From: Truepera sp.
GTDB lineage: Bacteria > Deinococcota > Deinococci > Deinococcales > Trueperaceae
Length of the DNA stretch: 49,774 nucleotides
NCBI GenBank assembly: GCA_965218435.1
Contig: CBDCKW010000003.1
Location: 1 to 49,774 of the forward strand
Reading direction: 5' to 3'
The position numbers and the translations under genes are program-made. Of the stretch, positions 23,594 to 26,336 are shown in pieces. Positions within the stretch are counted from its first letter, which is position 1. Each line of letters opens with the position of its first letter. The notes under the pieces were generated by a model. The model made no database searches. It worked only from the letters and a program-made list of their open reading frames with translations, and was not told the origin of the DNA.

Positions 23594-24112
23594 TTATCTT
23601 GCGGTCGTCGTTCTTTGCTGTTGTTCTGTTTGTGCTTTAACTGCCTGCAGGGCTCCACGCATATAGCCGCGCCATAAAAGAAAAACGAAGCTAGCAAGTA
23701 CAGGTCGTAGAAACCACTCCCTAGCCGTAAACGTGTACGTCCACGTTACCCGGGTATATCGTCCTTCAGAACTAAATCGCCACTGCCCACGACCCTCACA
23801 GGCGATGTACTTGAGTACCGACGTAAAATCGCTCGTTCGGTAGGCAAAGTAGCTTGGCACCTGATAATCGGTGAGCGTTTCCCTGGCTGTCGTGTTGTTG
23901 CTAAGATGTACCGTACGTATAGATCCCGGCACATTCCAGGATCCGACGTTATGAGATGTAGACACAACCCGAGGTAACGGACCGTAAGCGAAGAGGATTT
24001 TGTGCAGCACATCCTCCGCTGTGACGAACCTAAAAACATCTTGCAAAGGTGCGGCAACTAATTCGGTTAGGGTTGTAGCAACGTGCGTCATGTGCCTTCC
24101 TGAAAACGTCAT
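23594..24112 (-). CDS. SRPBCC/polyketide cyclase-like protein
   Basis: VAAPLQDVFRFV...GQWRF...TRVTWTYTF pattern; the start may be the Met at 24091. Confidence 0.7.
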   Translation of the reverse strand: MTFSGRHMTHVATTLTELVAAPLQDVFRFVTAEDVLHKILFAYGPLPRVVSTSHNVGSWNVPGSIRTVHLSNNTTARETLTDYQVPSYFAYRTSDFTSVLKYIACEGRGQWRFSSEGRYTRVTWTYTFTAREWFLRPVLASFVFLLWRGYMRGALQAVKAQTEQQQRTTTAR

Positions 24113-24405
24113 GTCAGAGGTATGCCACGTGGTTCACGGGTTGACGCTGAGAATGCAGCCTAGCACAAGACCAAACCGTAATGAGAGATGGATCCCATCC
24201 TTTGGCTCTTCAACACAACTGATACCGCTGGATCTGTTTTTATCCGGACAAGCTTGAGACTGAAGTCGATGGCACGCTATTAGAGAGTTAAATGTAAATA
24301 ACGAGCCGCTCCGCTACGCGTTTAACGAGATGGGATGAGGAGACCCCCTTTCCTAACTGAGTACGCTCAGTTAGAGGCGGCTGTCGCCTAGAAAGGGGTA
24401 TAACC

Positions 24406-25464
24406 ATGAAGCACAAGAAGGTCGTCGGTTTAGATTTAGGGGATAAGTTCTCGTACGCCTGTGTGCTCGACGCCGACACAGGTGAGGTCATCAAAGAGAA
24501 ACGTATCGCTACACGAGCAAGCTGCTTGGAGACGTTCTTTGCAGGTCAGCCTGCCATGCTCATCGCCATTGAAACAGGTACACATTCCCCTTGGATCAGC
24601 CGCTTGCTCGAAAGTTTTGGTCACGAAGTGCTGGTAGCCAACGCCCGCAAGGTGCGCTTGGTCTATGGTGGCGACCGAAAGAGTGACAAGCTTGACGCAC
24701 AAAAGCTAGCGAGGCTGGCCCGCTTTGACCCAGAGCTGCTATCACCAATCCAACACCGTAGCAAGGATGCACAAGCGCATCTAGCGCTGATACGCTCCCG
24801 CGACGCGCTGGTTAGCAGCCGCATCGGGCTCGTCAATCATGTCCGGGGAAGCGTCAAAGCCTTTGGTGCTCGTTTGCCGGTGTGTAGCACCCGCACCTTC
24901 GCCAGAAAAGCGCGCGCCGTCGTCCCGGAAGAGTTGCTGGCGGCGCTCGAACCGGTGTTGGCTATCATCGAGAAGTTAAGCGAGCAGATCCTGGTTATGG
25001 AGAAACGCATCAAGATTTTAGGAAGAGAGGCTTACCCAGAAACCAACGTGCTTCGCCAAGTCACCGGCGTAGGTGCCATCACCTCACTCACCTTTGTCTT
25101 GACGCTTGAGGAACCTGCAAGGTTTAAGAAAAGCCGGGATGTGGGTGCATTCTTGGGGTTGACGCCAGGGCAGAAGCAGTCGGGTGACAGAGACGTAAAG
25201 CTGCGTATCAGCAAACGAGGCGATGAAGGTTTGAGGCGGTTACTTGTTCAATCCGCGCACTACCTGCTCGGACCCTTTGGCTCAGACTGCGACCTCAGAC
25301 GGCACGGTGAGAAAATCGAGGCGGCTGGTGGGAGTTATGCAAAAAAGCGAGCCATTGTCGCCGTTGCCAGGAAGCTGGCTGTGCTCTTGCACAGGCTCTG
25401 GGTCACCCAGGAAATCTACGAACCGCTACGCAACAGCAATAAAACGCTGGCCAAAGCTGCCTGA
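24406..25464 (+). CDS. IS110-family transposase/recombinase
   Basis: DEDD domain VGLDLG...IETG...KSDKLDA; GLTPGQKQSG; AIVAVARKLAV. Confidence 0.97.
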   Translation: MKHKKVVGLDLGDKFSYACVLDADTGEVIKEKRIATRASCLETFFAGQPAMLIAIETGTHSPWISRLLESFGHEVLVANARKVRLVYGGDRKSDKLDAQKLARLARFDPELLSPIQHRSKDAQAHLALIRSRDALVSSRIGLVNHVRGSVKAFGARLPVCSTRTFARKARAVVPEELLAALEPVLAIIEKLSEQILVMEKRIKILGREAYPETNVLRQVTGVGAITSLTFVLTLEEPARFKKSRDVGAFLGLTPGQKQSGDRDVKLRISKRGDEGLRRLLVQSAHYLLGPFGSDCDLRRHGEKIEAAGGSYAKKRAIVAVARKLAVLLHRLWVTQEIYEPLRNSNKTLAKAA

Positions 25465-25520
25465 GAGCGCAAGAACCGACACCGTTAGTTAATACACAAC
25501 ATTTTTTAGAAGTGGTTCAC

Positions 25521-25672
25521 GCCCCGTCGGGTGACTGCGGCTTCGCGCTTGGCTCTCTGAAGCTGAGAATGAGATAGCAGCGCCCACTAACCGGACCCCA
25601 GCCTGCACCTTACCGAGTGCGTATGGAAGCGTGGCGAGATGCCTCTTCACCTTTACAACTTGTTTACGGGGC
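25521..25672 (+). ncRNA. Predicted bridge/seek RNA of the IS1111-type element
   Basis: Nested stems (GCCCCGT/ACGGGGC, GGTGA/TCACC) enclose two stem-loops whose internal loops match the reconstructed target and donor. Boundaries are approximate. Confidence 0.75.
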
Positions 25673-25950
25673 TTGACAACCTGGGGTCTCCTCATGGAAG
25701 CGCGTTGAACGTACAACAAATAGTCATTCGCTAAGGTTTACATTCTCACCCGGCTAGGACATCAAAACATTCAAACATGACTCTTCATGAGCGACACCGG
25801 GAAGTACACACTGTGTCGGTAGACCTCACTACGGTTTATATGCTGCGGCGTACGCCGCTACCTTGGATGACTTTAGGTAGGTTGCGAGCAGAACCCTAGG
25901 ATAAGCGCACAGCAGTCAGAGCCGACGCTAGTTCAAACCGCATCTCTTAG

Positions 25951-25999
25951 TTGACCTTCCGCCATACCGTGTGTAAACTACTTGATATCAAATAATTTA
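25951..25999 (+). promoter_or_regulatory. Sigma70-like promoter with an overlapping palindrome (candidate PadR operator)
   Basis: TTGACC-17 bp-TAAACT; imperfect palindrome TAAACTACTTGAT/ATCAAATAATTTA at 25974-25999. Confidence 0.6.
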
Positions 26000-26009
26000 G
26001 GAGGCTGTA

Positions 26010-26336
26010 GTGGACCGCACGCGAATGAAAGGCAACCTTGAAGTCATCTTGCTGACGGTGATCGCCGACGAAGGCCCCCTCTACGGGCTCGAGATCGTCC
26101 GGGAGGTGCAGAGCCGTACCCAGGGGGCGCTCGTACTCGCCGCCGGAAGCCTCTATCCGCCCCTCCACCGCCTCGAGAAACGAGGTTGGATACGCTCCGA
26201 GACGCGCCGGTCTCCGCACGGGAGCGGCACCGTCACCTATTACACAGTCACCGAGGCTGGGCGCGACGCGCTTGCCGAGCAGCGCGAGCTTACCAAGACG
26301 TTTATCCAAACCCTTCAGGAGTTGTTGCGGTTATGA
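26010..26336 (+). CDS. PadR-family transcriptional regulator
   Basis: LYGLEIV, GSLYPPLHRLEKRGWI and YYTVTEAGR. Confidence 0.92.
   Translation: MDRTRMKGNLEVILLTVIADEGPLYGLEIVREVQSRTQGALVLAAGSLYPPLHRLEKRGWIRSETRRSPHGSGTVTYYTVTEAGRDALAEQRELTKTFIQTLQELLRL

Follow-up and report, generated by a model that had tools for sequence, protein, structure and literature searches.

A new IS1111-group insertion sequence on a plasmid-like contig of Truepera sp. with a predicted 3' two-loop guide RNA

The closest described counterparts of the element considered here are the IS1111-group insertion sequences (IS) that have a seekRNA encoded at their 3' end, namely ISEc11, ISPa11 and ISKpn4/ISPst6, and, on the side of the IS110 group, IS621 with its bridge RNA. 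In those sections of the seekRNA report that deal with element layout, the IS1111 arrangement is given as subterminal repeats with extensions of 7 bp on the left and 3 bp on the right, and the seekRNA guides are placed so that the top-strand match precedes the bottom-strand match (PMC11187229). A long non-coding region downstream of the transposase gene is the IS1111 arrangement according to the corresponding sections of two reports (PMC11187229; PMC11208160), and the catalytic residues of IS621 and their roles are set out in a third (PMC11208158, in the part concerned with the active site). Given this background, we analyzed a 49,774-bp stretch of DNA from Truepera sp., the complete, plasmid-like contig C3 (the window hereafter) of a 4.8-Mb genome in nine contigs, and contend that its positions 24328-25698, which make up an insertion sequence of 1371 bp, very probably represent one intact copy of an unnamed IS1111-group element of the IS110 family, equipped with a DEDD/serine recombinase and a 3' two-loop guide RNA. 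The element is new; its kind, with a guide RNA that matches both the target and the element's own ends, was already described in 2024.

With ISEc11, ISPa11 and ISKpn4/ISPst6, as far as the seekRNA report describes them in the sections concerned, the element shares a DEDD transposase of about 340-350 amino acids (aa) with the GL-P----SG motif, subterminal repeats extended by 7 bp and 3 bp, a long downstream non-coding region, two short target matches with the top-strand one 5' of the bottom-strand one, an outward -35 sequence near the right end, and the lack of any target duplication beyond a shared dinucleotide (PMC11187229). It differs from these elements in its distant protein and its different target motif, and its two-loop RNA, predicted here from sequence alone, is a compact one in which the distal hairpin of the second loop, present in its own relatives, is missing. 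Features in common with IS621 and the bridge RNAs of the IS110 group, in the parts of the reports that treat them, are a two-loop RNA, predicted here, whose target guides and donor guides each comprise a CT/AG core (PMC11208160; PMC11208158), and a composite RuvC and Ser active site, the equivalents of D11, E60, D102, D105 and S241 being present (PMC11208158); a circular intermediate with a junction promoter, described for that group (PMC11208160; PMC11208158), is proposed for the present element as well. In contrast to IS621, the RNA of the window lies at the right end after the gene and not at the left end, the order of the guides is reversed, and the subterminal repeats are long. Insertion at conserved sites of other mobile systems is described in the excerpts concerned for IS4321/IS5075 (inverted repeats of the Tn21 family) and for ISKpn4 and its relatives (integron attC). 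The lineage studied here likewise inserts at one fixed position and orientation, namely in a repeated, plasmid-enriched motif at the borders of small gene modules; this motif is no recognisable attC or transposon end, and a search of the genome for an integron integrase gave no score above the cut-off.

A preliminary description of this DNA, made from the letters alone, had proposed both junctions of the element, and all of the strings were found where it placed them: TTTAACG at 24321-24327, AG at 24328-24329 and ATGGG at 24330-24334 on the left, and TCATGGA at 25692-25698, AG at 25699-25700 and CGCGTTG at 25701-25707 on the right. The AG dinucleotide stands at both junctions with nothing else duplicated, and the same was observed in 46 related loci and in three copies from another genome of the same genus (G005). 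The extensions are asymmetric (AGATGGG, 7 bp, on the left and GGA, 3 bp, on the right), the subterminal repeats ATGAGGAGACCCC and GGGGTCTCCTCAT agree in 13 of 13 positions, where 11-13 bp is the usual length, and the non-coding sequence amounts to 234 nucleotides (nt) downstream of the gene vs 78 nt upstream, as in other IS1111 elements. All of the IS110-family and IS1111-group sequence characters that were tested are thus present, and on these characters the element is assigned to the IS1111 group, its relation to IS1111-type proteins being judged from pairwise identities. The individual features are listed in Table 1.

Copies of the element were sought in 61 genomes (its own genome and 60 relatives), with matches in five, its own included. 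G005 contains four full copies (82% identity) and one broken copy, and in a further genome (G002) a left end is located at a contig edge. Three of the four full copies of G005 and the left end of G002 have different flanks, and their breakpoints fall at the same bases as those of the window copy, which with a slash for the breakpoint can be written flank/AGATGGG-ATGAGGAGACCCC on the left and GGGGTCTCCTCAT-GGA-AG/flank on the right. Because copies in another genome break there despite their different flanks, the ends of the element are independently confirmed. In the fourth full copy (L011), other bases stand in place of the 7-bp left extension. As a separate observation, all four full G005 copies (L004, L008, L010 and L011, on G005:C8) have two common frameshifts after transposase residue 302, and the fifth (L012/L013, on G005:C5) is broken in two. 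In the genome of the window itself, a 329-nt stretch on another contig (C5:96327-96655), 67% identical to part of the transposase gene, is a second, distant IS110-family element or a remnant of one.

The transposase contains the domains PF01548 (E = 2.5e-17) and PF02371 (E = 1.6e-19), corresponding to an N-terminal DEDD RuvC-like and a C-terminal Tnp domain, and reaches 221 bits with the NCBIfam model NF033542, 'IS110 family RNA-guided transposase', for which the cut-off is 140. An alignment with ten homologues (60-94% identity) has D10, E56, D94, D97, S259 and G260 as invariant positions. Two motifs, SDKLDA and GLTPGQKQSG, line up with those parts of IS621 that contain D102/D105 and S241-G242; the second of them, at residues 251-260, also represents the GL-P----S(t)G motif by which the IS1111 group is recognised. 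Given these domains, aligned motifs and invariant residues, the gene looks catalytically competent and full length. The protein has numerous relatives, at least 7997 of the 8000 candidates scored lying below E = 1e-30. The best named plasmid-borne ones, IS5075/IS4321 and IS1618, show 29-31% identity across about 82% of the length (best unnamed, 32%), IS5075/IS4321 giving 29% across residues 1-288 in a pairwise comparison, and the similarity to IS621 is marginal (E = 5.8e-5) and confined to the Tnp domain. The element had been called intact and new. Its full-length open reading frame, retained catalytic residues and perfect repeats bear out the former, and the latter holds in that the element is unnamed, its best named plasmid-borne relatives are only this similar at the protein level, and a DNA-level search of a plasmid collection returned no match.

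The evidence that carries the guide RNA lies in the 3' non-coding region and in its variation among relatives. Within the window, the first loop was reported to match the target with 7 of 9 positions in CTTCGCGCT (25541-25549) and 5 of 6 in AATGAG (25568-25573), and strings, positions and counts are right. The top-strand match precedes the bottom-strand match, in the order reported for IS1111-type seekRNAs. By themselves, these window-only matches are not significant: in 5000 dinucleotide shuffles of the non-coding region, made for the window alone, guide 1 was matched at 7/9 in 36% of cases and guide 2 at 5/6 in 72%, and both matches were present in the right order and spacing in 8.5%. Being weak on their own, they become convincing only through covariation in relatives.

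For this purpose 80 genome loci (48-64% aa identity; Rubrobacteraceae, Acidobacteriota, Gemmatimonadota and others) and 80 metagenome loci were compiled. End repeats could be scored for 76 loci, and 47 of these, the window included, passed a filter for canonical ends and sufficient flank, while 29 were dropped due to register shifts of the repeat finder, short contigs or the capture of other repeats; the addition of three G005 copies resulted in 50 elements with 48 distinct guide/target pairs. Nearly all of the 50 elements have the ends AGATGGG-ATGAG... and ...CTCAT(G/A)GA-AG and flanks that vary widely, and exact cognate runs of up to 12 nt for guide 1 and 10 nt for guide 2 are found at a constant position of the non-coding region. 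With the register fixed, guide 2 and its own left flank agree at positions -5, -4, -3, -2 and -1 in 67, 79, 92, 67 and 100% of the 48 pairs, respectively, compared with 27-42% in non-cognate combinations; this signal covers -5 to -1 plus the core, with none farther out than -5, and 12 pairs have a U-G wobble at flank position -2. For guide 1, scored over 9 nt including the core, the mean is 7.58 for cognate and 4.48 for non-cognate combinations, the cognate scores 5, 6, 7, 8 and 9 being held by 2, 5, 15, 15 and 11 pairs, respectively. Judged by this distribution and by the frequency of wobbles, the 7/9 and the wobble-bearing 5/6 of the window are typical, not defective; the target is imperfect, as had been stated, in the same way as those of its family, 7/9 being a modal class (15/48 at score 7 and 15/48 at score 8). 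The covariation across copies that the preliminary description had named as a check is therefore present, since the guide columns follow their own flanks in 48 distinct pairs across about 50 relatives.

One could argue that the guide matches are coincidental and that the protein recognises its target by sequence or by hairpin shape. The 8.5% of shuffles mentioned above would agree with this, and so would the site itself, as the rebuilt empty site folds at 30 nt into a 9-bp hairpin with the AG core in the tetraloop (-6.8 kcal/mol, z = -3.2). At 50 nt, the hairpin signal is not significant, with 8.4% of the shuffles folding as well. This explanation is nevertheless so improbable that we give it hardly any weight, as the guide columns change together with the flanks in the 48 distinct pairs and between close relatives, and most family targets have no hairpin potential. 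The wording 'hairpin-forming target' is consequently appropriate for this one site, with its 9-bp stem and the core in the loop, but not for the family: hairpin targets as a family rule were rejected, with a mean z of about 0 and only 2 of 50 sites at z < -2.

The comparison between close relatives is instructive at the level of single letters. In an alignment with G005 the RNA region is otherwise well conserved and it is the named guide segments that differ, guide 1 being UUCGCGCU in the window and AAUGCGCU in G005, and guide 2 AAUGAG and GUUGAG, respectively. The targets diverge at the matching letters: at left-flank position -3 the window has A where G005 has T, and at right-flank position +4 the window has G, as opposed to A at three of the four G005 sites and for the broken copy. 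A metagenome relative with 94% aa identity (L016) has the guides UUUGCGCU and UAAUGAG and the right flank CGCTTT, a second one with 92% (L014) the guides UUUGCGCU and ACUUGAG, and GGTTAACG terminates two of the left flanks among the metagenome relatives. Loose contig ends of sequencing run X3 represent further copies: two right flanks start with CGCG, and the left flank GCGTTTAACG recurs amid different surroundings, where it borders an independent insertion. The element had been termed reprogrammable, which applies here in the sense of natural variation only, close relatives differing in guide letters and in the matching target letters.

Loose ends at 24327-24329 and 25704-25706 were also seen in runs X1, X3 and X4, where the element or close variants stand at other flanks, and ATGTTG at the end of one such left flank agrees exactly with the second guide of the G005 type. 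In organism C, the left flank of the window is common up to the element boundary, and the contigs of this organism stop short of the right flank.

A consensus structure calculated with RNAalifold from 34 sequences contains two framing stems, one closing loop 1 (25529-25538 with 25577-25585) and one between the donor guides (25605-25608 with 25617-25620). The alignment took 32 of the 34 distinct relatives, L151 and L168 being left out as near-duplicates of L154 and L152. The two stems comprise 13 pairs, with 98.2% of 442 cells paired and four of the 13 pairs changed on both sides, and their covariation score of 0.231 compares with 0.075 in shuffles (none of 500 reached 0.231) and with at most 0.098 when the partners were slid. 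A fold of the single sequence recovers both stems. The lineage of the window is without the extra hairpin that relatives have in loop 2, and its non-coding region of 234 nt is among the shortest in the set (range 230-421, median 282).

In loop 2, the predicted guide ATGGAAG at 25623-25629 is indeed a 7/7 match to the right side of the donor, and its exact string was found in only 0.6% of 5000 dinucleotide shuffles of the non-coding region. Across the family, AU(G/A)GAAG follows the right-end CAT(G/A)GA-AG in 33 of 34 aligned rows, the sole exception being a G-T wobble. The left donor guide is less regular. Ahead of the conserved GCAC stem stands CCCA-n-C, replaced by CUCA in each of the three rows that have AGATGAG as their left end and by UCCA in one of three rows with AGATGGA. 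Overall, compensation was observed in 4 of 7 variant rows, and the family shows no conservation at the positions facing the first core base and base 3 of the left end. An exact search for the ideal left donor guide CCCATCT gave no hit in any of the 50 non-coding regions, hence our reading of donor guide 1 as partially pairing; the imperfection that had been remarked upon in the window is a family trait. The preliminary description had also pointed to a complementarity between GACCCCAG (25594-25601) and the right-end CTGGGGTC (25681-25688). This pairing exists, but a function for it is not borne out: as it depends on a GGGG that occurs only in the repeat of this lineage and the changes in G005 and L013 are uncompensated, we treat it as probably incidental and lineage-specific.

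These data also bear on a shorter version of the guide, according to which only loop 1 matters as a short seekRNA, the donor is recognised via target-derived flanks and protein contacts with the subterminal repeats, and the donor loop is dispensable. Precedent for this comes from ISEc11, for which an 82-nt seekRNA alone supported transposition and the donor needed the correct flanking target, according to the pertinent section of the seekRNA report (PMC11187229), and the partial complementarity of donor guide 1, here and in relatives, could be taken in the same sense. We nonetheless consider a dispensable donor loop unlikely, because AU(G/A)GAAG tracks the G/A of the right end in 33 of 34 rows, CCC/CUC tracks GGG/GAG in 3 of 3, and the stem that separates the two donor segments has been maintained, with compensatory change. 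Taken together, the covariation with both ends and the compensated stem indicate that selection seems to act on the donor loop, in line with the two-loop guide RNA that we prefer.

The following course of events can be proposed for the two-loop guide RNA. In loop 1 (approximately 25529-25585), CUUCGCGCU would pair with the plus strand of the core and right flank and GAAUGAG with the minus strand of the left flank and core, while in loop 2 (approximately 25593-25632), CCCCAGCCU would read the left end and AUGGAAG the right end and core. By analogy with ISEc11 and IS621, the element would be excised as a circle that joins ...CATGGA-AG-ATGGG..., whereupon the outward TTGACA would supply the -35 sequence of a junction promoter and the transcript would run through the recombinase gene into the guide RNA, possibly to be processed to a short form. 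The recombinase would then assemble with the guide RNA, and strand exchange would take place at the AG/CT core between the circle and a target AA(C/T)G-AG-CGCG. In silico support for this scheme consists of the anatomy, the ends, the catalytic residues, the covariation of guides with targets and with ends, the framing stems, and the circle of a relative; RNA production, protein binding and activity of this copy are what we infer by analogy.

The circle in question is that of metagenome contig L014 (1-1503; 92% aa identity), which is a circular permutation of the element with identical first and last 127 nt and a unit of 1376 nt. Its join reads ...CTCATGGA-AG-ATGGGATGAG, from right end to left end via a single AG, so that the predicted circle junction has been seen in a natural contig, i.e., in a single contig of a 92% relative. 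This contig suggests that excised circles, or tandem copies, were abundant enough for assembly. The outward TTGACA at 25673 is likewise present as described, and TTGAC is kept at the same distance from the right end in all 50 elements; the sole -10 candidate across the join is GAAGAT, which is weak, at a spacing of 17-18 nt. At the other end of the gene, the leader at 24345-24398 folds with -32.2 kcal/mol (z = -4.3; none of 200 shuffles was equally stable), and its pairing joins the inner part of the left repeat to GAAAGGGG at 24391-24398, which is likely the ribosome-binding site. This structure could hold translation low on read-through transcripts, should it have a regulatory role.

The insertion sites of the lineage fall in one motif, typically TTATGCGGT-N4-GAGCGC, within an element of about 55-60 nt, at a fixed point and in a fixed orientation. 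Guide 1 has an invariant GCGCU that reads the conserved GAGCGC, and N4, which varies, is read by that part of guide 2 which varies as well; in the window, 24313-24331 together with 25701-25704 represent a diverged copy of the motif. With a loose pattern, 21 copies were counted in the genome, 13 on the 685-kb contig C5 (among them those at 183585, 185047, 186445, 188518, 570045, 572626 and 161020), three on C2, one on C7 and four on the 3.9-Mb chromosome (C9), which gives a density about 20-80 times higher on plasmid-like contigs than on the chromosome. In an array on C5, duplicated on C2, four motif copies in the same orientation bound modules of 1.4-2.1 kb with unrelated accessory genes (Exo_endo_phos, an APH-like kinase, Peptidase_S58, a PF00144 hydrolase and a BD-FAE esterase), and plain tyrosine recombinase genes are found within about 1 kb of four motif copies. 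The integron integrase model TIGR02249 gave 19 weak tyrosine-recombinase hits in the genome, none above the cut-off, an Rfam search of four loci that hold the motif found no family, and the consensus fold of six motif copies is weak (-3.8 kcal/mol, with one compensatory pair). The idea that the occupied site is part of a long repeat was discarded, as it has only one paralogue (51 nt, 76% identical, on C5) and the shared feature is the short motif.

Several observations weigh against an active, RNA-guided element, in addition to the window-only shuffles and the partial complementarity of donor guide 1 in the window and in much of the family. The genome holds a single copy despite 71 unoccupied sites that match the 10-bp AA(C/T)GAGCGCG, several of them inside motif copies, and no joints of the window copy, neither circle junction nor empty site, were found when contigs of four runs were compared with 24000-26000. 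Given their two frameshifts in the C-terminal region, the G005 copies used for comparison are possibly non-autonomous, and since the elements share ancestry, the contrast between cognate and non-cognate pairs overstates independence. A promoter scan called no canonical sigma-70 promoter on the natural junction of L014, the folding stability of the non-coding region equals that of shuffles (z = 0.31; z = 0.16), and a search of 24000-26100 against Rfam at permissive thresholds found no family. That a guide RNA is transcribed from 25526-25640 and bound by the protein is, moreover, a step that we infer.

Some of these points could mean that the copy is a silent passenger, structurally intact yet without transposition in this host, its guides being a historical record. 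The single copy beside so many guide-matching sites and the lack of joints in the contigs of the four runs would both fit, as would a leader structure that may occlude the ribosome-binding site. Such a passenger is quite unlikely in our view, given the full-length open reading frame with all catalytic residues and the 13/13 repeats, and given that near-identical, guide-bearing variants are located at other motif copies in related samples; tight control and low copy number are, besides, usual for this group. An intact IS1111-group element with a two-loop guide RNA thus remains our preferred description.

Table 1. Features of the IS1111-group element and its insertion site in the window (all on the plus strand; guide and loop assignments are predictions)
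Feature	Position	Strand	Remarks
Left half of target GCGTTTAACG	24318..24327	+	-4 to -1 (AACG, 24324-24327) predicted to be read by target guide 2, with U-G wobble at -2
Left terminal extension AGATGGG, 7 bp	24328..24334	+	First two bases are the AG core copy; the identical 7 bases stand outside the repeat in G005 copies and most relatives
Left subterminal inverted repeat ATGAGGAGACCCC	24335..24347	+	13/13 match with right repeat
Structured leader	24345..24398	+	9-bp hairpin (24353-24361 with 24366-24374) inside the pairing of CCCCUUUC (24345-24352) with GAAAGGGG (24391-24398)
Transposase/recombinase gene, 352 aa	24406..25464	+	DEDD RuvC-like and Tnp domains; D10, E56, D94, D97, S259-G260
3' non-coding region, 234 nt, predicted to encode bridge/seek RNA	25465..25698	+	
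5' arm of stem closing target-binding loop	25529..25538	+	Pairs with 25577-25585; 9 pairs, 3 compensatory, 98% of cells paired
Target guide 1 CUUCGCGCU	25541..25549	+	Complements plus strand of core and right flank (AG-CGCG: 6 contiguous pairs; 7 of 9 overall)
Distal hairpin of target-binding loop	25550..25566	+	Length variable among relatives
Target guide 2 GAAUGAG	25567..25573	+	Same sense as left flank and core (AACG-AG); would pair with minus strand
3' arm of stem closing target-binding loop	25577..25585	+	
Donor guide 1 CCCCAGCCU	25596..25604	+	CCCA (25597-25600) complements left-end TGGG, C25602 complements core G; other positions non-complementary
Distal stem of donor-binding loop	25605..25620	+	GCAC 25605-25608 with GUGC 25617-25620, 8-nt loop; extra hairpin of relatives missing
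Donor guide 2 AUGGAAG	25623..25629	+	Same sense as right end and core
Outward TTGACA, -35-like hexamer	25673..25678	+	20 nt from right end
Right subterminal inverted repeat GGGGTCTCCTCAT	25683..25695	+	13/13 match with left repeat
Right extension GGA, 3 bp (element ends at 25698), then second AG core copy (25699-25700)	25696..25700	+	
Right half of target CGCGTTGAACG	25701..25711	+	+1 to +4 predicted to be read by guide 1

For the biology of this genome, the insertion is that of an ordinary mobile element at an intergenic site, flanked by an SRPBCC/Polyketide_cyc2 gene (23594-24112, minus strand) on one side and by a gene for a PadR regulator (26010-26336) on the other, beyond which comes a type IV coupling-protein gene. 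For the family, the example indicates that sequence data allow both the target guides and the donor guides to be read in an IS1111-type element not studied before, but only when relatives are included. As the clade is large, extends over several phyla and combines conserved ends with widely varying targets, it is readily available as a natural data set on the rules by which IS1111-type bridge RNAs pair. These rules are less well defined than those of IS621, and the points concerned are the reach of guide 2 (5 + 2 nt), the tolerated wobbles, and a left donor guide that is partly unpaired. The short non-coding region may also be of interest to those seeking compact orthologues. One may further speculate, though we rate the chance as low, that the motif is the recombination site of an undescribed cassette-type system and that the IS variants represent a natural panel of guide RNAs tuned to subsets of cassette sites. 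The target motif, and not the element, may be the real novelty here, and it is the part most deserving a further look.

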